A stretch of 64,000 nt of DNA from Escherichia coli (GTDB lineage Bacteria > Pseudomonadota > Gammaproteobacteria > Enterobacterales > Enterobacteriaceae), in assembly GCF_024502345.1 (NCBI RefSeq), contig NZ_JALDNN010000001.1; one strand, written 5' to 3'. The notes beneath the pieces are model-generated. The model ran no database searches. It was not told where the DNA came from and was given only the letters and a program-made list of their open reading frames with translations. Shown here piece after piece: positions 75-26,418 of the stretch (its first letter is position 1; each line of letters opens with the position of its first letter). The translations under genes and the position numbers were made by a program.

Positions 75-1270
<1,196 letters not shown>

Positions 1271-7745: not shown

Positions 7746-7746
7746 G

Positions 7747-9987: not shown

Positions 9988-10356
9988 ATGACCGGGATCC
10001 TGTTAGGGCAAGAAGTCCGTAAACGTAAAACTCCTCAGGAGAAGATCGCCATTATCCAGCAGACGATGGAGCCGGGTATGAATGTCTCCCATGTCGCCCG
10101 CCTGCATGGTATCCAGCCCAGCCTGCTGTTTAAGTGGAAGAAGCAATATCAGGAAGGCAGCCTCACCGCCGTTGCGGCTGGAGAGGAAGTCGTTCCTGCT
10201 TCTGAGCTTACTGCTGCTCTGAAGCAGGTCCGGGAGCTTCAGCGCCTTCTGGGCAAGAAAACGATGGAAGTTGAGATCCTGAAAGAAGCCGTGGAGTACG
10301 GTCAGTCGCGAAAATGGATAGCGCACGCGCCCTTGTTGCCAAAGGACGGGGAATAG
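9988..10356 (+). CDS. IS2-like orfA (InsC-like)
   Basis: [25 protein letters not shown]...[18 protein letters not shown] parallels IS2 InsC; start taken at the internal ATG 9988 rather than the ORF-track start 9961. Confidence 0.85.
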
Positions 10357-11195
10357 CCATGGTCAGCCGGACCATGGGCGTGTCGCGTGCGCAACTGTCA
10401 CTGCGGATTAACCGTTCTGCCGACTGGCAGGACAGGCGCTGTAACCGGCGTAATGAAGAAGCAGACGCAGAAATACTGTCGGCTATCCTCAACATTATCA
10501 GCGATATGCCGAGTTATGGTTATCGACGCGTGTGGGGCATCCTGCGCAAGCAACGTCGCACAGAGGGACAGCCACCTGTGAATGCCAAACGGCTTTACAG
10601 GATAATGAGCGAGCATAACCTGTTGTTGTTGCATCACAAACCAGAGCGACCGAAGCGTGAACATAAGGGCAAGATAGCGGTGGCAGAAAGCGATATGCGC
10701 TGGTGTTCAGATGGCTTCGAGTTCGGCTGCGACAACGGCGAAAAACTGCGGGTAACGTTCGCGCTGGACTGCTGCGACCGTGAGGCCATAGACTGGGCAG
10801 CAAGCACGGGAGGCTATGACAGTTCGACCGTGCAGGATGTGATGCTGAGGTCGGTGGAAAAGCGCTTCGGCGACAGGTTGCCCGACACAGCGGTGCAGTG
10901 GCTGACGGATAACGGTTCAGCGTATACCGCGTATGAAACGCGGAGGTTCGCGAGAGAGCTGAATCTGGAGCCCTGCACAACAGCGGTGAGCAGCCCGCAG
11001 AGTAATGGCATGGCCGAACGGTTCGTGAAAACGATGAAAGAAGACTATATCGCGTTCATGCCAAAACCGGATGTGAGAACAGCACTGCGAAACCTTGCAG
11101 TAGCGTTCACGCATTACAATGAAAACCACCCGCACAGCGCGCTGGGATATCACTCCCCGAGGGAATACCGGCGGCAGCGGACATCGTTAACTTAA
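10314..11195 (+). CDS. IS2-like orfB (InsD-like, integrase-core domain)
   Basis: MDSARAL...[26 protein letters not shown]...WLTDNGS...[13 protein letters not shown] parallels IS2 InsD. Confidence 0.88.
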
Positions 11196-11232
11196 GATAC
11201 AAAAGCTGTTCGGAGATGGAGGGTCAAGATCA

Positions 11233-11419
11233 ACACCGATAAGTCATATTCCGGTGTAATATGCATACCATGTGAGGTTTTTATAGTCTTTCCCTGCACG
11301 GAGCATAAAACAACGTTAAATAATGAATGGTCCGGGATAATATCTGCAAAAATTGCCAGGGGTACGGAGAGATGAAATGCACTGATATCATCGGTTATCA
11401 AAATGGCTATCTTTTTCAT
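11233..11419 (-). pseudogene. GlxA-type regulator, N-terminal 61 codons (MKKIAILITDDISAFHLSVPLAIF)
   Basis: Start codon at 11417-11419 with a GGAGAG ribosome-binding site; the frame ends inside the IS2-like element; the sequence continues in 9115-9896 after a 15-16 bp direct repeat. Confidence 0.75.
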
Positions 11420-11438
11420 TTCATACTCTCCTGTAAGA

Positions 11439-11843
11439 TTAACTAATCTGACGTACGATATCGTTATAATCAAAGTGCGCACGTTTTTCCTTAATTTTAC
11501 CGCCTTCAATAGTCAGCAGCATCATCAGAGAAATACGTACTTTTTTCCCGGTTGGTTTATATCCGTGCATTTCATTATTGTGGATACCTTCAAAAACAAC
11601 ATAAGCTACGACTTTATCCGCTTCACTGATAAGAACTTCAGGCTTCATGCTGAAGCCCCGGAATCCATCAAGTGTGGCAGTTTCAGATGCGATAAAACCG
11701 TCAACTCCATGAATGGGGTTATCTATCTGTGAATAGAAAACAAAGTCACTGGAGCAAAGTGATTTAAGGGTTAAAAAATCATAACCTTCAAGAGCCTGAT
11801 AAAAATCATGTACAAGTTTTTCATTTGAGTTTTTCATGGTCAT
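11439..11843 (-). CDS. SnoaL-like / NTF2-fold protein (134 aa)
   Basis: Small ORF 19 bp upstream of the regulator gene on the same strand; sequence pattern resembles SnoaL/ketosteroid-isomerase-like proteins (family call is tentative). Confidence 0.6.
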   Translation of the reverse strand: MTMKNSNEKLVHDFYQALEGYDFLTLKSLCSSDFVFYSQIDNPIHGVDGFIASETATLDGFRGFSMKPEVLISEADKVVAYVVFEGIHNNEMHGYKPTGKKVRISLMMLLTIEGGKIKEKRAHFDYNDIVRQIS

Positions 11844-12035
11844 TCACCTTTTTGTCTGGAGTAAGGACATTCTACGTGGTGTACACAAGTGAGTGCGAGT
11901 GACCAAAAAGACATTAATCAACATGATTGGGCCATTGTTATGAGAAAAAGGCTCCCCCCGCTGGGTTTCAACATCTGCCTGTGTTAAGCCCGCTCATAGC
12001 ACATAGCATAACGTCCAGCTGAGAACTCACGGTCA

Positions 12036-12611
12036 TTACTGTCCTGCCTTTACCCTGAGTATGGTTTGCCGGGTTGTATTAAACTCCCGAGCAATGGCGC
12101 TGATACTGGCCCCGGCCTTAATACGTGCAATCACAGAAAGTTTCTGTTCTTCATTCAGTGTTGAAGGACGGCCAAACCGCTTTCCGGCAGCTTTCGCTCT
12201 CGCAATACCAGAGTGCGTACGCTCAAGAAGCAAATCCCTTTCAAATTCTGCCACAGCAGAGATGACCTGCATGGTCATTTTTCCTGCCGGGCTTGTCAAA
12301 TCAACTCCGCCCAGCGCGAGGCAGTGAACGCGAATATCTGAAGCAGCCAGTTGTTCAACCGTTTTTCTGATATCCATCGCATTGCGCCCCAGTCGGTCGA
12401 GTTTAGTAACAATCAGCACATCACCATTTTCCATGCGATCAAGCAGCCGGATAAATCCGGGGCGTTCGCTGGCAGCAACCGAACCACTGATATGCTCCTC
12501 AATCAGTCGCTGGGGTCTGATGGCAAAACCCGCCGTTTCAATTTCACGCCGCTGATTTTCTGTAGTCTGTTCCAGAGTGGAGACCCGGCAATAAGCAAAA
12601 ACTCGTGACAT
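12036..12611 (-). CDS. tnpR: serine recombinase / resolvase TnpR (191 aa from [15 protein letters not shown])
   Basis: N-terminal catalytic serine motif (YCRVST) and C-terminal HTH; divergent from tnpA; start taken at the internal ATG 12609-12611 rather than the ORF-track start. Confidence 0.88.
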
Positions 12612-12770
12612 AGGAAACTTTCCGTACGTAAAGGATGTCCGAATTATAGCGTGTGTACGAAATAAATTTCGCTTACTTTCGGACATACTGTCAGCTTAGT
12701 GTACGAAACCGACCGGTTTCGGTCACAGCGAACAAATAACAGATGAAAACTATACGCGAGGGAGGCATTT

Positions 12771-15755
12771 ATGCCACGGCGACAGATACTGAGCAGCGAA
12801 GAGCAGGAACGCTTACTGGTTATACCAGATGATGAAATTATTCTGACCCGAATGTGTTTTCTGAACGAACCGGATATTGCGCTCATTAATAAGCACCGAA
12901 GGCCAGCGAATCGCCTGGGCTTTGCTGTATTACTCTGTTATCTGCGTGGACCTGGATTTATTCCGGACAAAAGCAGTGCTCCTCACAATGGCGTTGTATC
13001 CAGGGTTGCTTCCCGACTGAAACTTCAGCCTGATTTATGGCCGGAATATGCATCCAGAGAGCAAACCCGCTGGGAACATCTGACCGAACTTTATCGCTAC
13101 CTGGAACTATCCCCGTTCAGCCGGTCAATGCAAAAAGACTGTATCCGTCATCTGCACCCCTATGCCATGCGAACTGACAAAGGATTTATGCTGGCGGAAG
13201 AAATGCTCAGCTGGCTACATAACAATAATGTTATTTTCCCTTCTGTTGAAGTGATCGAACGGACGCTTGCCGAAGTCGTCACGCTCGCTAACAGATCGGT
13301 ATTTTCGACACTTACCGCGCAACTGGAAAAGCAGCATAAATCAGCACTCGACAGCCTGCTCATATCAGAGGGTGAACAACCTTCCCGTCTGGCATGGCTG
13401 CTACAGCCTCCGGGTAAAATAAACGGTAAAAATGTGCTGCAACATATCGACCGGCTTAATTCCATCGCTGCGCTGGGGTTGCCTGATGGTATTGCACTTT
13501 CCGTTCACCAGAACAGGTTGCTTAAACTGGCGCGTGAGGGCCGGAAAATGAGCAGCAGGGACCTGGCAAAATTCACCGATGTCAGACGTTACGCTACGCT
13601 GGTTTGTATAATAACAGAGGCCAGGGCCACCCTGACTGACGAAGTGATTGATCTGCACGAGCGTATCCTGGGTAGTCTGTTCAGCAGGGCAAAACGCACG
13701 CAGGCCGAACGGCTCCAGCAAACGGGAAAGCTTATTCAGAGCAAGCTGAAGCAGTACGTTACCGTCGGGCAGGCGTTACTTAACGCCAGAGAATCCGGGG
13801 AAGATCCCTGGACTGCAATAGAAGATGTCCTTCCCTGGCAGGAATTCATCAACAGCGTGGAAGAAACGCGGTTTCTTTCCCGTAAGGGCAATTTCGACGC
13901 GCTTCATCTGATCACCGAAAAATACAGTACGTTGCGTAAATATGCCCCGCGTATGCTGTCAGCATTGCAGTTCATGGCGACACCTGCGGCGCAGGCGCTC
14001 AGCGATGCGCTGGACACCATAACGGAAATGTACCGTAAACAACTTCGTAAAGTGCCGCCATCAGCGCCAACAGGGTTTATCCCTGAAAGCTGGCGAAAAC
14101 TGGTGCTCACGCCTTCAGGCATCGACCGCAAGTACTACGAGTTTTGCGTACTGAATGAACTCAAGGGTGCATTACGTTCCGGTGATATCTGGGTAAAAGG
14201 ATCGCGCCGCTACAAAAATTTTGATGATTATCTCATCCCGACTGCTGAGTTTGAGAAATCCCGACATAATGACCAGTTACAGTTGGCCGTTCAGACCGAT
14301 AGCCAGGCATACCTTCAGGCCCGTATGACTCTTCTTGCATCTCGGCTGGAAGAAGTTAACGCGATGGCGCTTGCCGGTGATTTGCCCGATGTAGATATCT
14401 CAGATAAAGGCGTAAAAATCACTCCACTGGAGAACAGCGTTCCTTCAGGTGTTTCGCCCTTTGCAGATTTGGTCTATGGCATGCTTCCCCATCCGAAAAT
14501 TACGGAGATACTGGAAGAAGTTGATAGCTGGACGGGATTTACGCGTCACTTCGCGCACCTCAAAAATAATAACGTCAGACCAAAAGACGGAAGACTGTTG
14601 CTGACCACCATTCTGGCTGACGGCATCAACCTTGGGCTGACAAAAATGGCGGAATCCTGCCCTGGGGCCACAAGATCGTCACTCGAAGGTATTCAGACAT
14701 GGTACATCAGGGATGAAACTTATTCAGCGGCACTGGCCGAGCTGGTCAACGCACAGAAAGAGCGGCCTCTGGCCGCATTCTGGGGCGACGGGACAACATC
14801 GTCGTCAGACGGGCAGAACTTTCGGGTAGGCAGTCACGGACGTTATGCCGGTCAGGTCAATCTTAAATATGGTCAGGAGCCGGGCGTGCAGATTTATACG
14901 CATATCTCAGACCAATACAGCCCGTTCTACGCCAAAGTGATCAGCCGGGTGCGCGACTCAACCCACGTGCTTGATGGCCTGCTGTACCATGAAAGCGATC
15001 TGGAAATTACCGAGCATTACACCGATACCGCAGGCTTCACTGAACATGTTTTCGCCCTGATGCACCTGCTGGGATTCGCTTTTGCGCCAAGGATCCGTGA
15101 TCTTCATGACAAGCGGCTGTTTATTCATGGAAAGGCCGAGCGCTATCCGGGGCTTCAGTCTGTCATATCAACAACCTGCCTGAATATCAAAGACATTGAG
15201 TCGCACTGGGATGAGGTATTGCGCCTGGCAACCTCGATTAAGCAGGGGACAGTCACCGCATCACTGATGATGAAAAAGTTAGCCAGTTACCCAAAACAGA
15301 ATGGACTTGCCAAAGCGCTGAGAGAGATTGGCCGCATCGAACGGACACTATTTATGCTGGACTGGTTCCGTGATCCCGGTCTGCGCCGACGCGTGCAGGC
15401 GGGGCTGAATAAGGGTGAGGCCCGTAATGCCCTTGCGCGAGCGGTCTTTTTGCACCGTCTGGGTGAAATAAGGGATCGTGGGCTGGAGAATCAGAGTTAT
15501 CGCGCCAGCGGGCTGACATTACTGACAGCAGCGATCACGTTGTGGAACACGGTATATATAGAAAGAGCTATTGAGTCACTAAAACGAAAGGGTATCCCGA
15601 TAAATGAGCAACTGGTCTCTCATCTTTCTCCCCTGGGCTGGGAACATATCAATCTGAGTGGAGATTACGTCTGGCGTAATAATCTTAAGCTGGGATCCGG
15701 AAAATACCGCTCATTACGTACAGTCGATACCGCTTTGTACAAAAAACAGTCTTAG
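12771..15755 (+). CDS. tnpA: Tn3-family transposase TnpA (994 aa)
   Basis: Size and sequence pattern typical of Tn3-family TnpA (about 1000 aa); the stop codon lies inside the terminal IR. Confidence 0.93.
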   Translation: MPRRQILSSEEQERLLVIPDDEIILTRMCFLNEPDIALINKHRRPANRLGFAVLLCYLRGPGFIPDKSSAPHNGVVSRVASRLKLQPDLWPEYASREQTRWEHLTELYRYLELSPFSRSMQKDCIRHLHPYAMRTDKGFMLAEEMLSWLHNNNVIFPSVEVIERTLAEVVTLANRSVFSTLTAQLEKQHKSALDSLLISEGEQPSRLAWLLQPPGKINGKNVLQHIDRLNSIAALGLPDGIALSVHQNRLLKLAREGRKMSSRDLAKFTDVRRYATLVCIITEARATLTDEVIDLHERILGSLFSRAKRTQAERLQQTGKLIQSKLKQYVTVGQALLNARESGEDPWTAIEDVLPWQEFINSVEETRFLSRKGNFDALHLITEKYSTLRKYAPRMLSALQFMATPAAQALSDALDTITEMYRKQLRKVPPSAPTGFIPESWRKLVLTPSGIDRKYYEFCVLNELKGALRSGDIWVKGSRRYKNFDDYLIPTAEFEKSRHNDQLQLAVQTDSQAYLQARMTLLASRLEEVNAMALAGDLPDVDISDKGVKITPLENSVPSGVSPFADLVYGMLPHPKITEILEEVDSWTGFTRHFAHLKNNNVRPKDGRLLLTTILADGINLGLTKMAESCPGATRSSLEGIQTWYIRDETYSAALAELVNAQKERPLAAFWGDGTTSSSDGQNFRVGSHGRYAGQVNLKYGQEPGVQIYTHISDQYSPFYAKVISRVRDSTHVLDGLLYHESDLEITEHYTDTAGFTEHVFALMHLLGFAFAPRIRDLHDKRLFIHGKAERYPGLQSVISTTCLNIKDIESHWDEVLRLATSIKQGTVTASLMMKKLASYPKQNGLAKALREIGRIERTLFMLDWFRDPGLRRRVQAGLNKGEARNALARAVFLHRLGEIRDRGLENQSYRASGLTLLTAAITLWNTVYIERAIESLKRKGIPINEQLVSHLSPLGWEHINLSGDYVWRNNLKLGSGKYRSLRTVDTALYKKQS

Positions 15756-15788
15756 CGTGGGATAATTTCCGTTTTCCAAGCGGACCCC
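15751..15788. repeat. Tn3-family 38-bp terminal inverted repeat (tnpA-proximal end)
   Basis: Reverse complement reads GGGGTCCGCTTGGAAAACGGAAATTATCCCACGCTAAG; starts with GGGG and ends TAAG, as in Tn3-family IRs. Confidence 0.85.
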
Positions 15789-15858
15789 AGGGAGAGCTGA
15801 GAACATTAAATTTTAATATAAACAAAGAATTACCTTCTTAGCGTACGTTACCGTCCCA

Positions 15859-16092
15859 TTGGCCCTCAAACCCCTCAACACCCTGATGGAACGTTTTTTT
15901 AGAAGTCTGAAAACAGAATGGGTGCCGGATAATGGATACGCTAATTTTAGCGAAGCCAGCACAGCGATAACGAATTACATAACGGGATATTACAGCCAGC
16001 TCAGACCTCATCAATATAACGGTAGTTTGACGCGGAATGAATCAGAACGATTGCTCTGGAAAAACTCTAAAGCCGTGGCCAACTATTGTTGA
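15859..16092 (+). pseudogene. IS3-family orfB C-terminal fragment
   Basis: MERFFRSLKTEWVP...YYSQLRPHQYNGSLTRNESERLLW is the typical C-terminus of an IS3-family OrfB; only about 75-90 codons remain (frame open from about 15817), directly to the right of the Tn3-family IR. Confidence 0.7.
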
Positions 16093-16103: not shown

Positions 16104-16571
16104 CTATTTTATAGGTAACCCCTTAAAAGATTTAATCTCCTTGATACTGAAACTGGTATTCATCTCCTTTATATTCCCAATTTTTCGTATCCTTATCATT
16201 GATACGTTGTGAAAATCATCCATATCTTTTACTACAAGATGCAGAAGATAGTCGTATCTTCCGGAGATATTATGACAGGCAATTACATTATCAATCTTCA
16301 TTATTTCTGCCTCAAAATATTGCATGCACTCCTCGGAATGAAGATCTAATGTAATATTCATGAATGCATAAAAATTGTATCCAAGGCTTTTCGGTTCGAT
16401 AAAAGCCCGATAGTTTTTTATCACTTCCTGCTCTAAAAACTTTAGCCGTTTCCAGCAGGCTGGAGGGGAAAGAAAAACACGCTTGGCAATCTCAGCGTTG
16501 TTCAGCCTGCCATCTTCCTGCAAGAAATTTAAAATCTGCATATCAACTTTGTCAAGCTTTACCATGTTCAA
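16104..16571 (-). CDS. Lrp/AsnC-family transcriptional regulator (155 aa)
   Basis: N-terminal HTH (DKVDMQILNFLQEDGRLNNAEIAKRV) and C-terminal RAM-like region; divergently arranged to the transporter gene across an AT-rich 200-bp spacer. Confidence 0.85.
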   Translation of the reverse strand: MNMVKLDKVDMQILNFLQEDGRLNNAEIAKRVFLSPPACWKRLKFLEQEVIKNYRAFIEPKSLGYNFYAFMNITLDLHSEECMQYFEAEIMKIDNVIACHNISGRYDYLLHLVVKDMDDFHNVSMIRIRKIGNIKEMNTSFSIKEIKSFKGLPIK

Positions 16572-16773
16572 CCTCCTGTGATAGCAATCATATTCGTAAT
16601 TTTATGAAATAAAATTAACCAAATCAATAAAAACAAGAAATAAGATAAGCCATAAATTGTAAAAATAGTTAATTTTAAAAAGATAATTAATATACTTACC
16701 GGGTAGAATCATTTATGAAGTGCAAACCTCTGTAAATAATTACCATAAAATATCCTCACACAGGAATATACCT

Positions 16774-18081
16774 ATGACCATATTGGAACAGAACATCGAC
16801 AGGGCCTCATTATCGCCAGAAGAGTGGAAAAAACTAACCCGATTTGACAGTACAGATGTAGGATGGATTATCATAAGCATAGGTATGGCTATCGGCGCCG
16901 GGATTGTGTTTTTACCGGTCCAGGTGGGGCTTATTGGATTGTGGGTATTCCTGCTTTCTTCCATCATTGGTTATCCGGCCATGTACCTGTTTCAAAGATT
17001 GTTTATCAATACGCTGGCAGATTCACGAGAGTGTAAAGACTATCCCGGTGTCATCGAGGGCTATCTGGGAAAAAACTGGGGAATGCTCCTCGGTCTGCTC
17101 TACTTTCTCATGCTGGTCATCTGGATATTCGCCTACCCTACGGCGTTGACTAACGATACAGCGTCGTATTTACACACGTTTGGCTTAACTGAGGGTCTTT
17201 TATCAGAGAACCCTTTCTATGGCCTAATTCTTATTACATTTCTTGTGCTTATTGCTTCACGTAGTGAAGAGCTCTTGTTCAGGATTTCCTCTTTCATGGT
17301 GTTATCAAAACTGGTGGTAGTGCTTATCCTGGGGTTGATGATGGTCAGCATGTGGGACCTCTCCAAAAACATCGGTTCATTCCCTTCTTTTAGTATTTTA
17401 ATCAAAAACGCCATTATCACCTTGCCATTTACGTTGACATCAATCCTGTTTATTCAGTCTTTGAGTCCGATGGTAATTTCATATCGTGCAAAAAACAAAT
17501 CTATAGAAGTGGCAAGATATAAAGCGCTAAGAGCAATGAATATCGCTTTTGGTACACTATTCATCGTTGTTTTCTTTTATGCATTATCATTCACTTTCGC
17601 CCTCGGTCACGATGAAGCTGTCAAAGCCTACGAGCAAAATATTTCAGCACTGGCTATTGCCGCACAGTTTATTGAAGGAGATGCAGCAAAGTATGTGACG
17701 CCAGTTGGTGTTGCATTGAATATCTTTGCCCTGATGACTGCCTTCTTCGGCGTTTACCTCGGGTTCAAAGAGGCTGTACAGGGACTGGCGATGAACGCAT
17801 TGACCCGTTTTATACCTTCAGAGAAAATCAATAAAAAAACGCTTAATGTTGGTATTGTCATTTTCACTATTGCCATCGCCTGGGGGGCAATCGTTCTGAA
17901 CCTGCCGGTTCTGCTATTCACCTCAATCTGCAGCCCCATTTTCGGCATTGTTGGTTGCTTAATCCCTGCTTATCTGGTTTACAAGGTACCCTCCCTTCAC
18001 CGATATAAAGGGTTTTCTCTGTATCTGATCATCTTTACTGGCATCCTGCTCTGTATTTCTCCGTTCCTGAAATTCATTTAA
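16774..18081 (+). CDS. HAAAP-family amino acid transporter (TdcC/SdaC/TyrP-like), about 435 aa
   Basis: Multi-span membrane protein with N-terminal W...IGAG..FLP motif; start taken at ATG 16774 (AGGA ribosome-binding site upstream) rather than the GTG at 16720. Confidence 0.82.
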   Translation: MTILEQNIDRASLSPEEWKKLTRFDSTDVGWIIISIGMAIGAGIVFLPVQVGLIGLWVFLLSSIIGYPAMYLFQRLFINTLADSRECKDYPGVIEGYLGKNWGMLLGLLYFLMLVIWIFAYPTALTNDTASYLHTFGLTEGLLSENPFYGLILITFLVLIASRSEELLFRISSFMVLSKLVVVLILGLMMVSMWDLSKNIGSFPSFSILIKNAIITLPFTLTSILFIQSLSPMVISYRAKNKSIEVARYKALRAMNIAFGTLFIVVFFYALSFTFALGHDEAVKAYEQNISALAIAAQFIEGDAAKYVTPVGVALNIFALMTAFFGVYLGFKEAVQGLAMNALTRFIPSEKINKKTLNVGIVIFTIAIAWGAIVLNLPVLLFTSICSPIFGIVGCLIPAYLVYKVPSLHRYKGFSLYLIIFTGILLCISPFLKFI

Positions 18082-18112
18082 ACAAACATATATGTCCAAA
18101 GAAGGTTAAATT

Positions 18113-19318
18113 ATGAAGTACAATTTTGATGAAATTATCAACAGAAAAAATACTGATGCCCTGAACTACGATGGGTGGAGACAATATATATTCAAGGCCG
18201 ACAAGAGTGCCCGCTTTGACTTTAAGGACGATGAATTTGTCAGAATGTGGGTCGCTGATATGGATTTTGCGACACCTCCGGAAATCCTTGCAGCGATTCA
18301 GGAGAGGCTTGATAAAAAAATACTCGGTTACACAAAAGTTTACGATGATGAGTACTATCATATTTTCCACAACTGGTGCCAGAGACGCTATGACTGGAAT
18401 ATAGATACCACAGAGATCGTGCTTTCACCGGGCATTATTCCTGCACTTAACCGTCTGGTACCGTTACTGACACAACAGGATGAAAGTGTGTTGATCAATA
18501 CACCATCCTATACGCCGTTTAAGCAGGCTGGAGACTATAGCTATCGTCGAGTGATCTGTTCTGATTTGCTGAAACAGGACAATGAATACATTATTGACTT
18601 CAACGATATGGAGAAAAAACTAACCGATCCTTCTCTAAATATTAAGCTGTTCATTTTATCCAATCCGCAAAATCCAACCGGGATGGTCTGGTCAGAACAA
18701 GAATTAATGAGAATGGGGCAGTTGTGCCTTAAAAACAATGTCTGGATCATTTCAGACGAAATACATTGTGATTTACTGAGAAATGGGATCAATCATATCC
18801 CGATGGCAAAACTGTTCCCAGACACTGATAAGATCATCACCTGTATGGCACCAAGCAAAACCTTTAATCTTGCCGGAAATCTGATGTCCCATATTTTTAT
18901 TAAAAATGAAAAGGTCAGAAAAGAATGGTTACGTCTTTATGATGAGTTTCTTTCACCACTGAGTCTGGCTGCGACCAAAGCGGCCTGGTCCCGGTGCGAC
19001 GAGTGGCTGGAACAATTAAAACACTATCTTGATGATAACTTCAGACTGGTAGAAAAATTTACCCAGGAACACTTTCCTGACGCAAACTTTAAAATTCCCG
19101 ATGCAACTTATCTGGCATGGATAAATATTGAGAAATACCTGCCACCGCAGGTAGACAGACAACAGCTTTCTCTCTATTTCGCCAACCAGACGGGAATACT
19201 GCTTGAAGGCGGGAACATGTTTGTAAGCAATGGAGAGGGTTACATACGGATTAATCTTGCCTGTCCACGCGCCGTGATACAAGAAGGATTAGAGAGAATA
19301 AGAAAAGCACTGAAATAG
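18113..19318 (+). CDS. PLP-dependent C-S lyase, MalY/PatB family (401 aa)
   Basis: Shares motif pattern with MalY as recalled (DMDFATPP, SNPQNPTG, ISDEIH, SKTFNLAG with the putative PLP lysine); a GAAGG ribosome-binding site precedes the ATG. Confidence 0.82.
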   Translation: MKYNFDEIINRKNTDALNYDGWRQYIFKADKSARFDFKDDEFVRMWVADMDFATPPEILAAIQERLDKKILGYTKVYDDEYYHIFHNWCQRRYDWNIDTTEIVLSPGIIPALNRLVPLLTQQDESVLINTPSYTPFKQAGDYSYRRVICSDLLKQDNEYIIDFNDMEKKLTDPSLNIKLFILSNPQNPTGMVWSEQELMRMGQLCLKNNVWIISDEIHCDLLRNGINHIPMAKLFPDTDKIITCMAPSKTFNLAGNLMSHIFIKNEKVRKEWLRLYDEFLSPLSLAATKAAWSRCDEWLEQLKHYLDDNFRLVEKFTQEHFPDANFKIPDATYLAWINIEKYLPPQVDRQQLSLYFANQTGILLEGGNMFVSNGEGYIRINLACPRAVIQEGLERIRKALK

Positions 19319-19380: not shown

Positions 19381-19507
19381 ATACCGGATAATTTAGCATG
19401 TTGAACCGATTTTCGGAGACTCTCTATCGCGCTGGACGGCTCTGCATGTACATTGTCGCCTGAAAAATAATATCAGGGATATAAATAGCCTGTTAATACC
19501 TCGTTTC

Positions 19508-20565
19508 GGCTTTGTTGAATAAATCAGATTTCGGGTAAGTCTCCCCCGTAGCGGGTTGTGTTTTCAGGCAATACGCACGCTTTCAGGCATACCTGCTTTC
19601 GTCATTTTGTTCAGCGCTCGTACCAGGGCCATAGCCTCTGCAACCTGACCATCGTAGTCACGCAGTGTCAGTGAACCCCCGAACAGCTGTTTTACCCGGT
19701 ACATCGCCGTTTCCGCTATCGAGCGACGGTTGTAATCTGTTGTCCATTTCCACCGCGCATTACTCCCGGTCATTCGCTGATTAGCCACTGCACGGTTACG
19801 GTCTGCATATTCACCGGGCCAGTAACCCGCACCTTTTCGGGGAGGGATAAGCGCGCTGATTTTCTTACGCCGCAGTTCATCGTGACATAGCCGGGTATCG
19901 TAAGCGCCATCGGCGGCGGCTGACCTGATTTTCCGGTGGGTTTGCCGGATTAACCCGGGGAAGGCCTCTGAGTCCGTAACGTTGTTCAGCGACAGGTCAG
20001 CGCAGATGATTTCATGTGTTTTACTGTCAACGGCGAGATGCAGCTTACGCCAGATACGGCGGCGTTCCTGGCCATGCTTTTTGACTTTCCACTCGCCTTC
20101 ACCGAAGACCTTCAGCCCGGTGGAATCAATTACCAGGTGTGCGATTTCACCCCGGGTGGGCGTTTTGAAACTGACATTAACCGACTTTGCCCGCCTGCTG
20201 ACACAGCTGTAATCCGGGCAGCGTAGCGGAACGTTCATCAGAGAAAAAATGGAATCAATAAAGCCCTGCGCAGCGCGCAGGGTCAGCCTGAATACGCGTT
20301 TAATGACCAAGCACAGTCGTGATGGCAAGGTCAGAATAGCGCTGAGGTCTGCCTCGTGAAGAAGGTGTTGCTGACTCATACCAGGCCTGAATAGCTTCAT
20401 CATCCAGCCAGAAAGTTATGGAGCCACGGTTGATGAGGGCTTTATTGTAGGTGGGCCAGTTGGTGATTTTGAACTTTTGCTTTGCCACGGAACGGTCTGC
20501 GTTGTCGGGAAGATACGTGATCTGATCCTTCAACTCAGCAAAAGTTCGATTTATTCAACAAAGCC
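19508..20565 (-). mobile_element. IS903-like element, copy 1 (1058 bp), flanked by a 9-bp target duplication
   Basis: IRs GGCTTTGTTGAATAAATC at 19508- and inverted ending 20565; direct repeats CCTCGTTTC at 19499-19507 and 20566-20574. Confidence 0.93.
19564..20533 (-). pseudogene. IS903 transposase, frameshifted
   Basis: Split into two ORFs (20300-20533 and 19564-20403); relative to copy 2 there is a 1-nt insertion near 20309-20310 (accaagcac versus accagcac). Confidence 0.9.
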
Positions 20566-20598
20566 CCTCGTTTCCTCTCTTCATGACACCCTGACTCA

Positions 20599-21135
20599 TT
20601 AATATAGTGTCACAGCATTGTGAGGGCACTGGACAACGCATTCGCCACAACCATCACAGCGTTCGTTGTCAGCCGACATCCGTCCAGACTCATTAATAAA
20701 GCAAGCCTGTCGTGGGCATACATCCACGCACTGTTTACACTGTCTGACAGGATTCACACAGGCAGAGTTACAGAACACCGGGCGCAGTCCGGTATCAAAA
20801 CGAGACTGCACGCGTAGCGCGTCACTCGAACATGCTGCGATACACAAACCACAGCCATCACAACTGGCATATTCAATCATCAGTTGCGGGTAACCGTCTT
20901 CATGTCTGGACAGGACTCCCATTGGGCAGACATCAATGCACTGACTACATTGGGTACACTGGGTTATGAACTCCGCATCAGGAACCGCCCCTGGCGGCAA
21001 CGAATGTCCCAGCCGGGTAGACAGTACTTCTGGCGTTGTGTGCTTTGCCGCGCTGACAAACGCACGAAACAGTCCGCGCCGACTGACGTGCCGGTGAGCC
21101 ATCAATTCATGATAATATTTCTCTGATTTGTTCAT
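20599..21135 (-). CDS. NapF-like ferredoxin-type protein (polyferredoxin, 178 aa)
   Basis: Four Cys-cluster motifs (CxxCxxCxxxCP-like) and an N-terminal RRGLF motif; start overlaps the stop of the DmsD-like gene by 4 nt. Confidence 0.72.
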   Translation of the reverse strand: MNKSEKYYHELMAHRHVSRRGLFRAFVSAAKHTTPEVLSTRLGHSLPPGAVPDAEFITQCTQCSQCIDVCPMGVLSRHEDGYPQLMIEYASCDGCGLCIAACSSDALRVQSRFDTGLRPVFCNSACVNPVRQCKQCVDVCPRQACFINESGRMSADNERCDGCGECVVQCPHNAVTLY

Positions 21136-21728
21136 CCGAAATACAGCCGCTTCACCGCAGGTTGCAACGCCCGTTGCTGTTGCAAATCCTGCAAATAGCG
21201 CGTGGTCACGGCGGCAAGGCGAGCATAGAACGGACTCACCCTGTTGCCCTGCAGACGTTCAAGATAGCGATATCCCCACGGTAACAAATAAACCTCTAAC
21301 AGCTGATTAACTGCCGCATCTTTTCCAGCATCAAGTATCGCACTGCAGGCTAACAACATCAGCCCAAACTGATCTTCCGGCTCATTTTGACCCGAATTAA
21401 AAGTCATTCCCTGAGACTGCAGAAACGCCCGGTACTTAGCGGTGGTATTGCCCATTAGCAGGTTATCGCGTTCCAGCCAGACAGATCCCCAGGGTGGCAC
21501 GGGCATCTCGCCCTGCCCTTCAAACAGCACGGAGAATTGCCATGCCAGTTCGTCATTATCGGGAAACGGCCAGTCTGCGCACAGTGAAGCTGTTCCCGCA
21601 GGGTCGCTCCATGGGTACAGCTCCGACAGAGTGGGCAGACAATCGAAAAGTGCTTTCACCTCTGGTCGTTCCGGAGAGTAGTAAAACAGTGCACCGAGGA
21701 TCCTCGGTAATACAATATTGGGGGACAT
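21132..21728 (-). CDS. TorD/DmsD-family redox-enzyme maturation chaperone (198 aa)
   Basis: Motifs ILGALFYY.PE, PWGSVWL and NEPEDQFG parallel E. coli DmsD as recalled, at roughly 35-40 percent identity. Confidence 0.8.
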   Translation of the reverse strand: MSPNIVLPRILGALFYYSPERPEVKALFDCLPTLSELYPWSDPAGTASLCADWPFPDNDELAWQFSVLFEGQGEMPVPPWGSVWLERDNLLMGNTTAKYRAFLQSQGMTFNSGQNEPEDQFGLMLLACSAILDAGKDAAVNQLLEVYLLPWGYRYLERLQGNRVSPFYARLAAVTTRYLQDLQQQRALQPAVKRLYFG

Positions 21729-21771
21729 CCTGAGTTCTCCTGAAAACAGAGCGGCTACAGCCGCTCACAGA

Positions 21772-22557
21772 TTACATCGGCAACGTCCACAGGTTGTAGA
21801 ATGCGATCCTACCCACCAGTTCCGCAGCGATAACCACCAGTGACGTGGTCGCCAGAACGGCCACATTAGTTTTGAGTCGTACCCAGGCCACCACACCGAC
21901 AATGCCGACAGCTAGCAGTACAACCTGAGCAGTGAACCAACTGGATTGAGCCGCAGTTAGCACCCCATCAGCATCCATAAGCGTCAAAATATAGCCTGGA
22001 CGCAGGCAGAAGCTGACCAGAATCGCCAGCACACTCACCAGCAACCCCAGGCGCAGACCAAACAGTCCGGCCAGAATGCCACCTCCGATCATCGGAGTCA
22101 GTACCATCATCACCGTAGTGTAAGATGTCCGCCAGGTGACCACCGTCGGCAACTGATAGATTTGCGGGATGGCGAAGATAAAAACCACCCCCACCGCGGC
22201 CGCCAGCCACACCAGTCCTTTACATAACGAAGCCGCTCCACGATTGAGAAGCAACCCCAGTGCGCCCAGCCCGCCAAGTGTCGCAAACACTGCCGATAAC
22301 ACGATTTCGTTGCTCATCGGTGAATGGCCCACTCGCAGCAACATATTCAATGCTCGTAAAGGCTGGCCTACATGGAAAATGCCCAGCAACACCCCAACGC
22401 CAAACAGACACATCGCGGAGAAAAGACCAACGGCCATACGCTGCCTGTCAATCTGCCCCAGGGTGCCGCCAATCAGCAACAGAATAAACGCGCCAACTGC
22501 GCTCTGAGTAAAGACGGTAAAAAAGACCAGAGGTAACTCATGCATTGCGCACCTCAC
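21772..22557 (-). CDS. DmsC-like membrane anchor subunit
   Basis: Hydrophobic multi-span protein (HELPLVFFTVFTQSAVGAF) resembling DmsC/YnfH; follows the Fe-S subunit gene with overlap. Confidence 0.8.
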   Translation of the reverse strand: MRCAMHELPLVFFTVFTQSAVGAFILLLIGGTLGQIDRQRMAVGLFSAMCLFGVGVLLGIFHVGQPLRALNMLLRVGHSPMSNEIVLSAVFATLGGLGALGLLLNRGAASLCKGLVWLAAAVGVVFIFAIPQIYQLPTVVTWRTSYTTVMMVLTPMIGGGILAGLFGLRLGLLVSVLAILVSFCLRPGYILTLMDADGVLTAAQSSWFTAQVVLLAVGIVGVVAWVRLKTNVAVLATTSLVVIAAELVGRIAFYNLWTLPM

Positions 22558-23164
22558 TCATGTTCATGATGGCCCCTTCCTTGTCTCCCGTCGGGCGGGC
22601 CTTCGGATGGGGTTTAATAATAAGGTTAGGATGAGTAAACGACGCGGCGGGCAGCGGCGCGATTTCATTCTCAGTGCCATACTTCTTCCGTAACTCATCG
22701 ATCGGCCCGAAATCCAGCGCGCGCTGTGGACAAGAGTCCACGCAAATTGGTCGCAGATTTTTCTCCAGTCGATCAAGGCAACCATCGCACTTACGCATCA
22801 CTTTGGCCTGAGCATCAAATTGTGGCGCGCCATACGGGCAGCGCATTTCGCAATAACGGCATCCGACACAAATATTGTCATCGACCAGCACCAGTCCGTC
22901 CTCTTCACGTTTGTGCATCGCTCCGGTAGGACATCCGGAGACACAAACCGGTTCATCACAGTGGTTACAGGCAATAGAGAGGTAGTAGGTAAAAGTGTCG
23001 TTGTGCCAGCTTTCTCCTTCTTTCGCCCAACTTCCGCCACCATATTCATATACCCGACGGAATTTCGGGCCCACGTCCAGATCTTTATTATCCTTGCAAC
23101 TGACCTGGCAGGTTTTGCAGCCTGAGCAACGCGAGGAGTCAACATAAAAGCCATACTGTTTCAT
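22538..23164 (-). CDS. DmsB-like Fe-S subunit (four-cluster ferredoxin, 208 aa)
   Basis: MKQYGFYVDSSRCSGCKTCQVSCKD...CNHCDEP.C...CVGCRYCEMRCPYGAPQ parallels E. coli DmsB/YnfG. Confidence 0.88.
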   Translation of the reverse strand: MKQYGFYVDSSRCSGCKTCQVSCKDNKDLDVGPKFRRVYEYGGGSWAKEGESWHNDTFTYYLSIACNHCDEPVCVSGCPTGAMHKREEDGLVLVDDNICVGCRYCEMRCPYGAPQFDAQAKVMRKCDGCLDRLEKNLRPICVDSCPQRALDFGPIDELRKKYGTENEIAPLPAASFTHPNLIIKPHPKARPTGDKEGAIMNMSEVRNA

Positions 23165-23177
23165 TGCGGATCACTCC

Positions 23178-25361
23178 CTAAGCGCGTTTGATTTCAACCA
23201 GGTTGGTATGTTGCGGGTTCCCTTTCGCCAGCGGCGACGGCAGGTGGCTGGTCAATGTGTTAATACATCCACCCACGTCCACACCGTTGCTGTCCAGTCG
23301 GGTCCACGCGCCTTGCGGCATTGCCACCACGCCCGGCAGGATGCGCTGTGTCACCTTGCAGGGGATCTCCACCACACCGCGATCGTTGAATACATGGACC
23401 ATATCGCCTGATTTCAACTGACGCACGCTGGCGTCTATCGGGTTGATCCAGACTTCATCCGGTACCGCTTCATGCAGCATCAGCACACTGGCATATGTTG
23501 AGTGCGTGTGACCTTTGGTGTGAAAACCGCTCATCTGTAGCGGATACTTTGCTGTCAGACTCTTGTTCAGATGGGACTCTGTCACTATACAAAATTCAGG
23601 AACAGCCGGAATGCGATCTCCTTCCGGTAGTGTCCAGGCTTTAGCCAGTTCCGCCAGAGTGTGCGAGTAAATCTCAATCTTCCCGGAAGGTGTCGTCAGT
23701 GGACTGGCAACCGGATCATGGCGGAAATCAGCAAGGATAATACTGTCCTCATCACGAGTACCTTGCTGATCGATAACCCCCATATTCATTGCAACTTCCC
23801 ATTCAGGCAGATATGATCGCTTCTCTTTAACTTGTCCGTAATGCTTCGCCATCCACTCTGCCTGAGTACGCCCCTCAGTAAAACGCTCTCTTACCCCAAG
23901 ATGCCCCGCAATATCTGCACAGATATCATAGGTACTGCGTACTTCCCACATCGGTGTGATCGTTTTTTGCATTGCAATCATGTAATGGTGAGAACCGGCT
24001 GCATAGGAACTGTCCACCAGATCCTCGGCTTCTAAGTAGCTAGTTTCTGGAAGAAGGATATCGGCAAAGCGGGCACTGGCAGTCATATGATTATCAATAA
24101 CCACGATAGTTTCGCACAGGCTGTCATCTTCAAGTATTTTGCGTGTACGATTGATATTTCCATGTTGATTCAGAAGTGCATTCCCGGCCTGGTTGAAGAA
24201 CAGTTTAATACCGGTTTTCAGTTTATCCGCGCCTTTAACCCCCATAGTGGTGGCTGTCATTTTTTCCGGACTTTGAATCGCATCTGTCCACAGATAGCAG
24301 GGGATTGACACCTTAACGGGATTTTCACCAATCGGCAGAGCAGGAACACCATAAGGTGTTCCGTATGTCCAGTTCCCATTGTTGGTTCCTGGCAATCCAA
24401 AATGACCCGTCAGGGCAGGAAGTATCTGAACCGCTCTGGAAGTCTGTTCACCATTTGCATGACGCTGTGGCCCCCATCCCTGGGCAATGAAACAGGCCCG
24501 AGCTTCGGCCATTTCACGTGCCAACTGGCGAATACGAATAGCCGGGATGCCACAGATATCTGCCGCCCATTCAGGTGTTTTTTCGACGCCGTCATCACCG
24601 TTACCCAGAACATAGTCTTTATAACTGGCATTTGGTTTCGCCGTTTCCGGAAGGGTGCTACGATCATAACCGACACAATAAGTATTGACTCGTTCTTCGT
24701 CGATCAGATTTTCTTTTATCAACGTGTGTGCAATAGCTGCTACCAGTGCAGCATCGGTTGTAGGGCGAATTGGTAACCATTCAGCATGTTCTGTAACAAC
24801 AGAGTCTGTATAGCGCGGATCGATGATAATCACCCGGGCGCCTGATATTTCCAGCGCACGGCGCAGTTCTTCAACTTGCCCACCACCGGACATCCGAGTC
24901 TCAGATAAATTCAGACCAAAAAAAACCACAAGATCAGAATGCGCAATCTGGCTAAAATGACTGGCAAACTGTACTCCTGTAGCACCATACGTGTAAGATG
25001 TGGCGGTAAAGTTTTGAGCGTTTGAGTAATTATTGTAATACTGCAGAAAACCGCCATTCAGGTTCAATAACCTTTTCCATGCGGGTGTTCCTTGGTTATG
25101 ATAATACGCGCCAGATTGATAATTAAAATAGATTGCTTCATTTCCATATTTTTCAGAAACGCGCTTTAATTCAGCGGCAATAAAGGCTGTGGCCTCATCC
25201 CATGAAATACGTTTAAATTTCCCTTCTCCGCGTTTACCAACACGTTTCATCGGATATTTAATCCGGTCAGGGCTGTAAACTCGCCAGCGGCTGGAACGAC
25301 CTCGCAGACAGGGACGGATTTGGTGTTCACCGAATACCGAATCATCCTTAGCATCTTCCGG
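23178..25361 (-). pseudogene. DmsA-like molybdopterin oxidoreductase catalytic subunit, 5'-truncated by IS903 copy 2
   Basis: Frame stays open to the IS903 boundary (PEDAKDDSVFGEHQIRPCLRGRSSRWRVYSPDRIKYPMKRVG) and matches DmsA from about residue 85; the Tat signal and N-terminal Cys-cluster region are missing. Confidence 0.88.
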
Positions 25362-26418
25362 GGCTTTGTTGAATAAATCGAACTTTTGCTGAGTTGAAGG
25401 ATCAGATCACGTATCTTCCCGACAACGCAGACCGTTCCGTGGCAAAGCAAAAGTTCAAAATCACCAACTGGCCCACCTACAATAAAGCCCTCATCAACCG
25501 TGGCTCCATAACTTTCTGGCTGGATGATGAAGCTATTCAGGCCTGGTATGAGTCAGCAACACCTTCTTCACGAGGCAGACCTCAGCGCTATTCTGACCTT
25601 GCCATCACGACTGTGCTGGTCATTAAACGCGTATTCAGGCTGACCCTGCGCGCTGCGCAGGGCTTTATTGATTCCATTTTTTCTCTGATGAACGTTCCGC
25701 TACGCTGCCCGGATTACAGCTGTGTCAGCAGGCGGGCAAAGTCGGTTAATGTCAGTTTCAAAACGCCCACCCGGGGTGAAATCGCACACCTGGTAATTGA
25801 TTCCACCGGGCTGAAGGTCTTCGGTGAAGGCGAGTGGAAAGTCAAAAAGCATGGCCAGGAACGCCGCCGTATCTGGCGTAAGCTGCATCTCGCCGTTGAC
25901 AGTAAAACACATGAAATCATCTGCGCTGACCTGTCGCTGAACAACGTTACGGACTCAGAGGCCTTCCCCGGGTTAATCCGGCAAACCCACCGGAAAATCA
26001 GGTCAGCCGCCGCCGATGGCGCTTACGATACCCGGCTATGTCACGATGAACTGCGGCGTAAGAAAATCAGCGCGCTTATCCCTCCCCGAAAAGGTGCGGG
26101 TTACTGGCCCGGTGAATATGCAGACCGTAACCGTGCAGTGGCTAATCAGCGAATGACCGGGAGTAATGCGCGGTGGAAATGGACAACAGATTACAACCGT
26201 CGCTCGATAGCGGAAACGGCGATGTACCGGGTAAAACAGCTGTTCGGGGGTTCACTGACACTGCGTGACTACGATGGTCAGGTTGCAGAGGCTATGGCCC
26301 TGGTACGAGCGCTGAACAAAATGACGAAAGCAGGTATGCCTGAAAGCGTGCGTATTGCCTGAAAACACAACCCGCTACGGGGGAGACTTACCCGAAATCT
26401 GATTTATTCAACAAAGCC
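25362..26418 (+). mobile_element. IS903-like element, copy 2 (1057 bp), without target duplication
   Basis: IRs GGCTTTGTTGAATAAATCG at 25362- and inverted ending 26418; flanks ATCTTCCGG and CCGGTTGAA are not a direct repeat. Confidence 0.93.
25394..26362 (+). CDS. IS903 transposase (intact; likely 307 aa from the GTG at 25439)
   Basis: Matches IS903/IS102-type transposase as recalled (KQKFKITNWPTYNKALINRGS...MPESVRIA); the ORF track extends it upstream to a TTG. Confidence 0.92.
   Translation: MKDQITYLPDNADRSVAKQKFKITNWPTYNKALINRGSITFWLDDEAIQAWYESATPSSRGRPQRYSDLAITTVLVIKRVFRLTLRAAQGFIDSIFSLMNVPLRCPDYSCVSRRAKSVNVSFKTPTRGEIAHLVIDSTGLKVFGEGEWKVKKHGQERRRIWRKLHLAVDSKTHEIICADLSLNNVTDSEAFPGLIRQTHRKIRSAAADGAYDTRLCHDELRRKKISALIPPRKGAGYWPGEYADRNRAVANQRMTGSNARWKWTTDYNRRSIAETAMYRVKQLFGGSLTLRDYDGQVAEAMALVRALNKMTKAGMPESVRIA

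Follow-up and report, generated by a model that had tools for sequence, protein, structure and literature searches.

Systems comparable to the operon analysed here are described in Salmonella enterica and Haemophilus influenzae. The Salmonella enzyme STM4305 is reported to have weak DMSO reductase activity; growth on DMSO depended on it only when it was supplied in trans to a triple mutant, and complementation led the authors to hypothesize that each DmsA may work only with the DmsBC of its own system (bioRxiv 10.1101/2022.11.29.517730). A 2025 preprint claims that the same system, "Psr2", is a Mo-independent sulfate reductase (PMC12636705). H. influenzae has a dmsABCDE cluster in which dmsE encodes a NapF homologue and dmsC and dmsD are separated by 111 bp, and two transcription units have been shown (PMC8340005). 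NapF itself acts in the Fe-S maturation of NapA (PMC10609526).

The window, a 64,000-nucleotide stretch of Escherichia coli DNA, contains five open reading frames on the minus strand (positions 20599-25361) in the order dmsA′-dmsB-dmsC-dmsD-like-napF-like, between two inverted copies of IS903B and in an island rich in IS and Tn3 elements (Table 1). The dmsA-like operon is here an ordinary dead gene remnant, because an insertion sequence has removed the promoter and the first 86 codons of the catalytic gene. With high confidence, we read the region as what is left, in inactive form, of an accessory DmsABC-family operon that belongs to the STM4305-type clade and was acquired horizontally. The initial annotation had described an operon of the DMSO-reductase family that differs from dms and ynf, with its own DmsD-like chaperone and NapF-like ferredoxin and with inverted IS903 copies on either side; all of this is borne out.

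Table 1. Features of the operon and its surroundings in the window
Feature	Position	Strand	Basis or remark
Lrp/AsnC regulator	16104-16571	-	accompanies operon in VREC0864 too
Serine/threonine-type transporter	16720-18081	+	accompanies operon in VREC0864 too
PatB-family C-S lyase	18113-19318	+	accompanies operon in VREC0864 too
IS903B copy 1, 1058 bp	19508-20565	-	terminal repeats, RefSeq naming of matching copies
NapF-like (DmsE-like) poly-[4Fe-4S] protein gene	20599-21135	-	TIGR00402, Cys motifs
DmsD/TorD-family redox-enzyme maturation chaperone (predicted), 198 aa	21132-21728	-	PF02613, NF008632
Terminator-like GC-rich hairpin followed by T-run, inside dmsC-like/dmsD-like gap	21749-21766	-	consensus scan only
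dmsC-like membrane anchor/quinol oxidase subunit, 257 aa from ATG 22545	21772-22545	-	PF04976
dmsB-like, four-[4Fe-4S] electron-transfer subunit, intact, 208 aa	22538-23164	-	TIGR02951
dmsA-like catalytic subunit gene, 3′ remnant	23178-25361	-	codons 87-813 plus stop
IS903B copy 2, 1057 bp, intact transposase	25362-26418	+	terminal repeats, RefSeq naming of matching copies
yddB remnant (TonB-dependent receptor), without first 155 codons	26419-28326	+	K-12 homology

Gene content and family placement

Family models were applied as NCBIfam profiles to the operon proteins and as Pfam profiles to the same proteins as found in locus L026. The A subunit, represented by its intact allele in E. coli VREC0864 (locus L001), scores above the cutoff of TIGR02166 (dmsA_ynfE; 1122 bits vs 777.7) and below those of the curated models for DmsA (NF011566; 885.7 bits, cutoff 1600), YnfE (NF041885; 927.4 bits, cutoff 1675) and YnfF (NF041884; 870.3 bits, cutoff 1650). 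The B subunit exceeds the cutoff of TIGR02951 (281 bits vs 214.1). The C subunit has no match among the NCBIfam models and contains the Pfam domain PF04976 (DmsC). The D protein reaches 146 bits with the DmsD model NF008632, under its cutoff of 162, and contains PF02613 (NarJ/TorD/DmsD family). The fifth protein scores 97.1 bits with TIGR00402, just under the cutoff of 102.2, and has four Cys motifs and an N-terminal SRRGLF in the same layout as K-12 NapF, to which it is 27.6% identical; its gene lies outside any nap operon, and RefSeq annotates a shorter, 167-aa form. On these sequence features its product is best called NapF-like or DmsE-like. The Mo-ligand serine of the A subunit is S199, which aligns with K-12 DmsA S205 (Ser176 in the old numbering) and is conserved in all clade members, and the identity of this ligand residue is established knowledge. 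The same residue identity is documented in PMC12636705.

The operon is not a duplication, because its A subunit shares no more than 48-50% identity with DmsA, YnfE and YnfF of K-12. The corresponding values are 60% for the B subunit (DmsB and YnfG), 32-34% for the C subunit (DmsC and YnfH) and 35% for the D protein (DmsD), and comparison with the chromosomal ynf and dms proteins revealed no near-identity. A recent duplication of chromosomal dmsABC or ynfEFGH-dmsD would account for the similar subunit families and gene order, but these identities, together with scores far under the curated DmsA, YnfE and YnfF cutoffs and a location inside an IS- and Tn3-rich island, make it vanishingly improbable. 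In the phylogeny proposed earlier, carried out as a neighbour-joining tree with identities, the A subunit groups with Salmonella STM4305-type proteins, apart from DmsA, YnfE and YnfF. Specifically, it is ~80% identical to Salmonella cluster P0004 and to an S. arizonae locus protein, both standing in for the LT2 STM4305 protein in the comparison. The S. arizonae relative adjoins dcuS-dcuR-dcuB-fumB, which we take to be the LT2 position of STM4305. The earlier description of the substrate as unknown stands only in part, since STM4305 (~80% identical) has been tested for DMSO and is instead claimed in a 2025 preprint to be a sulfate reductase.

Overlaps of 4-20 nt, initially attributed to all the genes, are present at the B/C junction (8 or 20 nt; the longest dmsC-like frame has a GTG start at 22557) and at the D/napF-like junction (4 nt), but not at the other two junctions. 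The A/B junction is a 13-nt gap, and the C/D junction is a 43-nt gap containing the terminator-like hairpin. That a NapF-like gene lies outside the K-12 dms and ynf operons is correct; given H. influenzae dmsE and several Enterobacterales, its presence in such an operon is not unusual. Eight further genomes of Enterobacterales, among them Citrobacter, Intestinirhabdus and Trabulsiella, keep the five-gene order.

The truncated catalytic gene and its intact allele

The search of other genomes for an intact copy that includes the 5′ end and promoter region, suggested in the initial annotation, identified one in E. coli VREC0864 that is 99.9% identical. Window positions 23178-25361 correspond to positions 9001-11184 of that locus at 99.9% nucleotide identity, and the dmsB-like, dmsC-like, dmsD-like and napF-like genes of the window are intact and two SNPs and one codon apart from the VREC0864 copy. 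The VREC0864 copy shares the gadC-digH-dosCP chromosomal neighbourhood with the window copy and is likewise followed by the PatB, transporter, Lrp and Tn3 genes; its A protein is a RefSeq MULTISPECIES entry present on 269 contigs. An FNR-like box with one mismatch, TTGATCATTGTCAA, precedes the intact ATG by 67 nt and is the best match in the 22.8-kb locus, across which the total of FNR-box-like matches is no higher than chance; the box is absent from the window. Judged from this motif, expression of the intact operon is probably FNR-dependent.

The structural facts of the truncation can be read directly from the DNA. Alignment to the intact 813-aa allele reveals that the window copy comprises codons 87-813 and that 86 codons are gone at the boundary of IS903 copy 2, refining the earlier figure of about 85 and confirming that promoter, Tat signal and Cys cluster are missing there. 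The lost part contains M1, the SRRQVIV Tat motif, the signal peptide, and FS0 residues Cys63, Cys67 and Cys71 (three of the four ligands), while Cys104, Mo-ligand Ser199 and the MGD-binding domains are still present. Thus, the intact allele has both a Tat signal peptide and the FS0 motif C-x3-C-x3-C...C (C63, C67, C71 and C104), whereas the window copy has neither and retains only C104 of the motif, because everything before P87 has been replaced by IS903B. A 690-aa sub-ORF of the remnant matches only PF00384 and PF01568 in Pfam, and re-inspection of the window revealed no intact start codon or Tat signal. The missing 5′ end could sit elsewhere in the genome, of which the window covers 64 kb.

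We considered whether the operon might be partly functional, either through read-out from IS903 copy 2 that yields a fragment starting at M124, or through B, C, D and NapF-like proteins acting, for example, with DmsA or YnfE/F. The remnant frame is open over 727 codons and the four downstream genes are intact and nearly unchanged from VREC0864, as such residual function would call for; even so, it is very unlikely. Read upstream of the junction, the dmsA′ frame meets a stop codon 15 codons inside the IS, and inspection of the reading frame found no in-frame start between that stop and ATG 25250 (M124). The M124 product is without the Tat signal and three of the four FS0 ligands. A consensus scan detected no promoter-like site facing dmsA′ at the end of copy 2, whose transposase is transcribed away from dmsA′. 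As for partnership with the K-12 enzymes, the B and C subunits are too far from DmsB/YnfG and DmsC/YnfH (60% and 32-34% identity) to favour it, and the Salmonella preprint hypothesis that DmsA may pair only with cognate DmsBC also argues against it (bioRxiv 10.1101/2022.11.29.517730). The earlier presumption that the operon is inactive is therefore supported by the lost start, Tat signal, FS0 cysteines and promoter region, as far as sequence can tell.

IS903B copies and the dmsA′-yddB′ junction

IS903 is 1057 bp in length; it duplicates 9 bp of its target and can delete DNA next to itself (PMC12670165). The copies in the window conform to the IS903 group (IS5 family): ~1057 bp, GGCTTTGTTGAATAAATC terminal inverted repeats, a 9-bp duplication (copy 1), and an IS5-family transposase (NF033579, 357 bits). 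Copy 1, whose transposase is split by a single additional T at IS position 257, is flanked by the 9-bp duplication CCTCGTTTC (19499-19507 and 20566-20574), and VREC0864 has the empty site, where CCTCGTTTC occurs once. Copy 1 is a simple, independent insertion just downstream of the napF-like gene. Copy 2 has no target duplication, its flanks being ATCTTCCGG and CCGGTTGAA, and homology to K-12 yddB begins exactly at its end, at 26419. Since it has no duplication and fuses dmsA′ to a truncated yddB, copy 2 marks a junction formed by deletion or recombination. This IS903B-associated event has joined dmsA codon 87 to yddB codon 156, and with it went the promoter, the ribosome-binding site, the start codon, the Tat signal and three of the four FS0 cysteines; no functional enzyme can therefore be made.

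The arrangement resembles Tn903, in which inverted IS903-group copies surround the passenger gene aphA1, and could be taken for a composite transposon that picked up the beheaded operon and arrived as one unit. Copy 2 has an intact transposase, and related alleles, found elsewhere on plasmids and chromosomes, are enclosed by IS1 and ISKpn26, as mobility of this kind would suggest. The outer flanks CCTCGTTTC and CCGGTTGAA are unlike, however, and therefore there is no 9-bp duplication for the whole unit. Moreover, copy 1 is flanked by a perfect duplication of its own, the site that it occupies is empty in VREC0864, and beyond copy 1 the passenger DNA runs colinear into the PatB, transporter, Lrp and Tn3 genes as in VREC0864. 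Arrival as one unit is thus extremely unlikely: the inverted-IS bracket is coincidental, because copy 1 inserted independently. The window differs from Tn903 in the missing outer target duplication, in the frameshifted transposase of copy 1, and in copy 2 being a junction.

Predicted function, distribution and known relatives

By homology, the product of the intact operon is most likely a molybdo-bis(MGD) reductase that is exported by Tat and faces the periplasm. In such an enzyme, the DmsC-like subunit would oxidize menaquinol, the DmsB-like subunit would pass electrons onward through four [4Fe-4S] clusters, and the DmsA-like subunit would deliver them via FS0 to Mo, liganded by Ser199. The DmsD-like protein would be a cytoplasmic maturation factor and signal-peptide chaperone, and the NapF-like protein, by analogy with NapF-NapA only, may be a cytoplasmic Fe-S maturation factor that helps to load the FS0 cluster.

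The operon is present in 72 of 5426 complete E. coli genomes and also on 73 plasmids, and in E. coli it is rare, IS-bracketed accessory cargo. It is a long shot that the intact five-gene module is mobile "accessory respiration" cargo conferring a gut-fitness trait beyond DmsABC/YnfEFGH. Such cargo may travel between IS1, ISKpn26 or IS903 copies with mosaic dmsA alleles, and its vehicles may be IncHI1-type and P1-like plasmids and the chromosomes of poultry and human E. coli; repeated independent 5′-end disruptions would then reflect a cost outside the niche. If the Salmonella "Psr2" preprint is right, the module would confer reduction of sulfate or oxyanions at FS0, with the NapF-like protein dedicated to loading this catalytic cluster.

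The family, the subunits and the chaperone-plus-NapF-like arrangement are already described, so nothing here is mechanistically new; the locus is of little importance for mechanism, and its value lies in annotation and evolution. It should be labelled a pseudogene remnant, not a third working reductase, and it illustrates how one IS903B element beheads two divergent operons together, dms-like and yddB-pqqL. Groups that study STM4305/"Psr2" could find it of interest that E. coli plasmids and chromosomes carry a circulating Salmonella-type DmsA paralogue as cargo between IS copies.

Compared with K-12 dmsABC and ynfEFGH-dmsD, the operon is alike in its TIGR02166 and TIGR02951 matches above cutoff, its DmsC Pfam domain and its predicted topology and cofactors, but it is accessory and has its own chaperone and NapF-like gene inside the operon. 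With H. influenzae dmsABCDE, compared by architecture and not by protein sequence, it shares three structural genes, a DmsD chaperone and a NapF homologue, and in both the widest intergenic gap is the one that separates dmsC from dmsD, which measures 111 bp in H. influenzae and 43 nt, including a hairpin, in the window. Salmonella enterica STM4305-STM4308 (STM14_5178-5181, "Psr2") belongs to the same DmsA clade and has the same A-B-C-DmsD-like order. The Salmonella operon has four genes, with no NapF-like gene detected in it, vs five in the window, and its locus is fixed and chromosomal, whereas the window copy is shortened, inactive and situated in a mobile-element island. The residues surrounding the Mo-ligand serine read YYNNYSNAQNFTATSYTY in the window operon and YHNTYSTAQIATATPYTH in Salmonella, and the RHSACLVNCGSRC FS0 motif and the serine itself are common to the STM4305-type enzyme and the intact allele.

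Truncation of the dmsA-like gene

The window operon comprises five minus-strand genes, which, together with the principal mobile elements, are listed in the table below. Curated models assign the products to their families: the A subunit (intact allele as query) scores 1122 bits against TIGR02166 (cutoff 777.7), the dmsB-like protein 281 bits against TIGR02951 (cutoff 214.1), the chaperone 146 bits against the DmsD model, slightly below the cutoff of 162, and the napF-like product 97.1 bits against the NapF model, slightly below the cutoff of 102.2. Pfam matches PF04976 (DmsC) and PF02613 are recorded for identical proteins on a public contig. The tight linkage by overlaps of 4-20 nt described in the initial annotation holds for B and C (8 or 20 nt) and for D and the napF-like gene (4 nt), but not for A and B, separated by 13 nt, or for C and D, separated by 43 nt. 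The C/D gap contains a GC hairpin with a T-run behind it, resembling a terminator (21749-21766, minus strand).

Operon genes and mobile elements of the window
Feature	Coordinates	Strand	Remarks
dmsA-like remnant	23178-25361	minus	ORF call
dmsB-like	22538-23164	minus	208 aa; ORF call
dmsC-like	21772-22545	minus	257 aa from ATG; longest ORF has GTG start at 22557
DmsD/TorD-family chaperone	21132-21728	minus	198 aa; ORF call
NapF-like poly-ferredoxin	20599-21135	minus	178 aa; ORF call
IS903B copy 1	19508-20565	minus	1058 bp
IS903B copy 2	25362-26418	plus	1057 bp; intact transposase
ISKpn26	71-1274		
IS1	2304-3071		
Tn3-family transposase	12771-15755		intact

The initial annotation had suggested seeking an intact copy of the operon in other genomes. 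Among 5426 complete E. coli genomes searched by megablast, an intact copy with 99.9% identity is present on a single chromosome, that of isolate VREC0864 (NZ_LR536431.1; 22.8-kb locus L001), where the dmsA-like gene encodes 813 aa. Window position 25361 corresponds to L001 position 9001, where codon 87 begins. The 86 codons that are gone include the start codon and the signal peptide with its twin-arginine motif, SRRQVIV, as well as residues Cys63, Cys67, and Cys71 of the FS0 motif; Cys104 and the Mo-ligand serine, S199, are kept in the remnant. A serine in the ETRMSGGG motif was also considered as the Mo ligand and was ruled out by alignment, which identifies the serine of YS(N/T)AQ, corresponding to K-12 DmsA S205. 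Comparison with the intact copy thus bears out the earlier reading that the catalytic subunit lacks its N-terminus, Tat signal, and Cys cluster, and re-inspection of the window revealed no intact start codon or Tat signal. Upstream of the junction, the dmsA' frame extends 15 codons into the IS and then reaches a stop, with no ATG, GTG, or TTG in frame ahead of the ATG at 25250 (M124). A consensus scan revealed no promoter directed toward dmsA' at the end of IS903 copy 2, the transposase gene of which is directed away from dmsA'. Alignment of L001 to the window revealed no match elsewhere within the window for the lost 5' end or the upstream island genes. Over the aligned 4.8 kb (remnant dmsA, four downstream genes, and spacers), the window and VREC0864 differ by 2 SNPs and one codon in all, indicating that the four downstream genes are intact.

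In VREC0864, a putative FNR box, TTGATCATTGTCAA (L001 8663-8676; one mismatch; best match in the 22.8-kb locus), precedes the ATG of the intact dmsA-like gene by 67 nt; it is absent from the window. The count of FNR-box matches across the locus is no higher than chance, and TTGATCATTGTCAA is therefore a lead, not proof. Farther upstream, a 'hypothetical' region of 430-aa scale (L001 about 8100-8560) resembles an IS3-family transposase remnant.

The intact form of exactly the window's A protein has a MULTISPECIES entry in RefSeq and occurs on 269 contigs. A contig look-up by a 690-aa sub-ORF gave seven matches; this look-up returns disrupted copies only, and the number is not a breakage rate. 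Independent disruptions in other public assemblies include the same allele with a Q100 stop codon (L026, 5632-6000), with a 1-nt indel (L027), and with a different upstream junction beside T6SS genes (L028); two further public loci, L030 and L032, probably also carry different junctions.

Origin of the two IS903B copies

The two IS903B copies are identical apart from an extra T at IS position 257 of copy 1 (window about 20309), which frameshifts the copy 1 transposase into ORFs of 77 and 279 aa; the copy 2 transposase is intact. Copy 1 has a perfect 9-bp direct repeat, CCTCGTTTC, on both sides, and VREC0864 has an empty site with one CCTCGTTTC, indicating that copy 1 is a simple insertion between the napF-like and PatB-family genes. 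Copy 2 has flanks ATCTTCCGG and CCGGTTGAA, with no target duplication. Homology to K-12 yddB begins exactly at 26419, at codon 156 of 790, leaving yddB without 155 codons, and the window contains nothing from the yddA side of yddA-yddB-pqqL. The mismatched flanks and the exact start of yddB homology indicate that copy 2 marks a junction at which either IS903 deleted adjacent DNA or two IS903 copies recombined. IS903 is described as an element of 1057 bp that makes 9-bp duplications and deletes adjacent sequence (PMC12670165). The anatomy of the copy 2 junction shows that a single IS903B copy removes the start of two divergent operons, the dms-like one and, on the opposite strand, yddB-pqqL.

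Movement of the pair as a composite (Tn903-like) transposon is ruled out by the duplication pattern, since the outer flanks of the pair differ. Inversion of the segment between the inverted copies is likewise ruled out, since its orientation relative to the PatB, transporter, Lrp, and Tn3 genes is the same as in VREC0864, with which the window is colinear beyond copy 1 through all four. Thus, the pair did not move as a unit, and the inner segment was not inverted.

The dmsA'::IS903::yddB' junction is absent from the 5426 complete E. coli genomes. IS903-group insertions in yddB are present at positions other than that of the window in the three complete genomes inspected (L038, L039, and L040: E. 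coli W444, WP7-S17-ESBL-01, and 2017.17.03CC), one near nt 213 and the remaining two near nt 1152, and nine more megablast matches join an IS903-group element to yddB. In L040, an IS903B copy is located between the 5' part of yddB and a pqqL without its N-terminus, an arrangement resembling an adjacent deletion. The pattern suggests a recurrent IS903 target region. In a public contig (L029; ENA ERZ27278125 k141_621, 1-170), IS903 joins dmsA' exactly where it does in the window, at L001 9001, with the opposite IS end touching dmsA'. Homologous recombination cannot swap which IS end meets a flank, and L029 therefore represents either a separate insertion into this site, perhaps a hot spot, or an artefact of assembly.

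Distribution and genomic neighbourhood

At least 80% of the operon is present in 72 of the 5426 complete E. coli genomes, and 71 of these 72 carry, on chromosomes and plasmids, a variant with 85.8% nucleotide identity. The plasmid collection contains 73 matching records (Escherichia, 61; Klebsiella, 8; Salmonella, 4), among which is a second variant, with 74.4% identity. The plasmid operon is located between IS1 and ISKpn26, on IncHI1A and on IncHI1B with P1-like genes nearby (L036, p65COLEC-1; L037, pJSMCR1_2); on one chromosome (L002), the operon is located between ISKpn26 copies. The two plasmid variants have identical B, C, and NapF-like components and differ in A and D, indicating that the alleles are mosaic, or recombinant. 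A literature search for DMSO reductase on plasmids, in connection with IncHI1 or ISKpn26, found nothing relevant.

The island occupies the corresponding chromosomal region of VREC0864, where its far end is formed by an ISKpn26 copy beside a truncated gadC. The island is therefore common to the window and VREC0864, and different IS-associated deletions have affected its edge in the two. Window positions 1-16000 are a dense mobile-element mosaic, containing, in addition to the tabulated elements, IS3-family fragments, two IS110-family genes, a serine recombinase, and an IS2-type transposase that adjoins a GlxA/FtrA-like regulator; from 26419 rightward, the window consists of ordinary E. coli backbone (yddB', pqqL, gadBC, dosCP, ddp, and fdnGHI). 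The VREC0864 counterpart of the Tn3-family transposase is frameshifted, with an IS5075 copy beside it. A block at 16104-19318, encoding a PatB-family C-S lyase, a serine/threonine-type transporter, and an Lrp/AsnC regulator, is beside the operon in both the window and VREC0864. None of ten further Enterobacterales loci examined has this block beside the operon.

Clade, proposed function, and comparison with known systems

The A subunit is only 48-50% identical to its K-12 relatives (DmsA, 48.9%; YnfE, 49.8%; YnfF, 48.1%) and falls far below the curated DmsA, YnfE, and YnfF model scores. These values exclude a simple duplication and agree with the initial annotation, which had set the operon apart from dms and ynf. 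Identities of the other components to K-12 proteins are 60% for B (DmsB/YnfG), 32-34% for C (DmsC/YnfH), 35% for the chaperone (DmsD), and 27.6% for the napF-like product (NapF). In a neighbour-joining tree, the window allele clusters with P0004, a Salmonella enterica protein cluster of 8910 sequences, and with S. arizonae locus L008, to both of which it is about 80% identical, apart from DmsA, YnfE, and YnfF. In L008, the gene adjoins dcuS, dcuR, dcuB, and fumB, a neighbourhood that we take to be that of STM4305 in LT2. The residues flanking the Mo-ligand serine differ between the window allele and those of Salmonella and Citrobacter, so specificity may differ from theirs. The A-B-C-D-napF-like order is found in Intestinirhabdus alba, Citrobacter amalonaticus, C. 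sedlakii, Trabulsiella, Cedecea, Klebsiella sp., and Symbiopectobacterium. In a scan of genome contigs and a 5.8-billion-protein search, the closest non-E. coli proteins were those of Intestinirhabdus alba and a JGI contig, which are just 85-86% identical.

By homology, the DmsC-like subunit of the intact system would oxidise menaquinol, the DmsB-like subunit would relay electrons via four [4Fe-4S] clusters, and the DmsA-like subunit would pass them via FS0 to Mo-bis(MGD), where, on the periplasmic face, an O atom would be taken from an oxyanion or from an S- or N-oxide. The DmsD-like chaperone would hold the Tat leader until the cofactors are in place, and the NapF-like protein may assist cytoplasmic Fe-S loading of the A subunit, as NapF is reported to do for NapA (PMC10609526). 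In one preprint, STM4305 is reported to restore anaerobic growth on DMSO only when supplied in trans to a triple dmsA mutant (bioRxiv 10.1101/2022.11.29.517730); in another, the Salmonella enzyme is claimed, as 'Psr2', to be a Mo-independent, FS0-dependent periplasmic sulfate reductase (PMC12636705).

The observation and interpretation of the initial annotation are thus essentially correct. The locus is a catalogued accessory operon from a studied clade; its architecture is known, and the IS event that inactivated it is a routine one. The Salmonella locus has no fifth gene, matching the published four-gene STM4305-STM4308 operon, whereas the window operon has five. Its architecture, with five genes and a NapF homologue last, is that of H. 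influenzae dmsABCDE, in which dmsE encodes the NapF homologue and dmsABC is transcribed separately from dmsDE (PMC8340005); the hairpin between C and D may likewise divide the structural genes from those for maturation.
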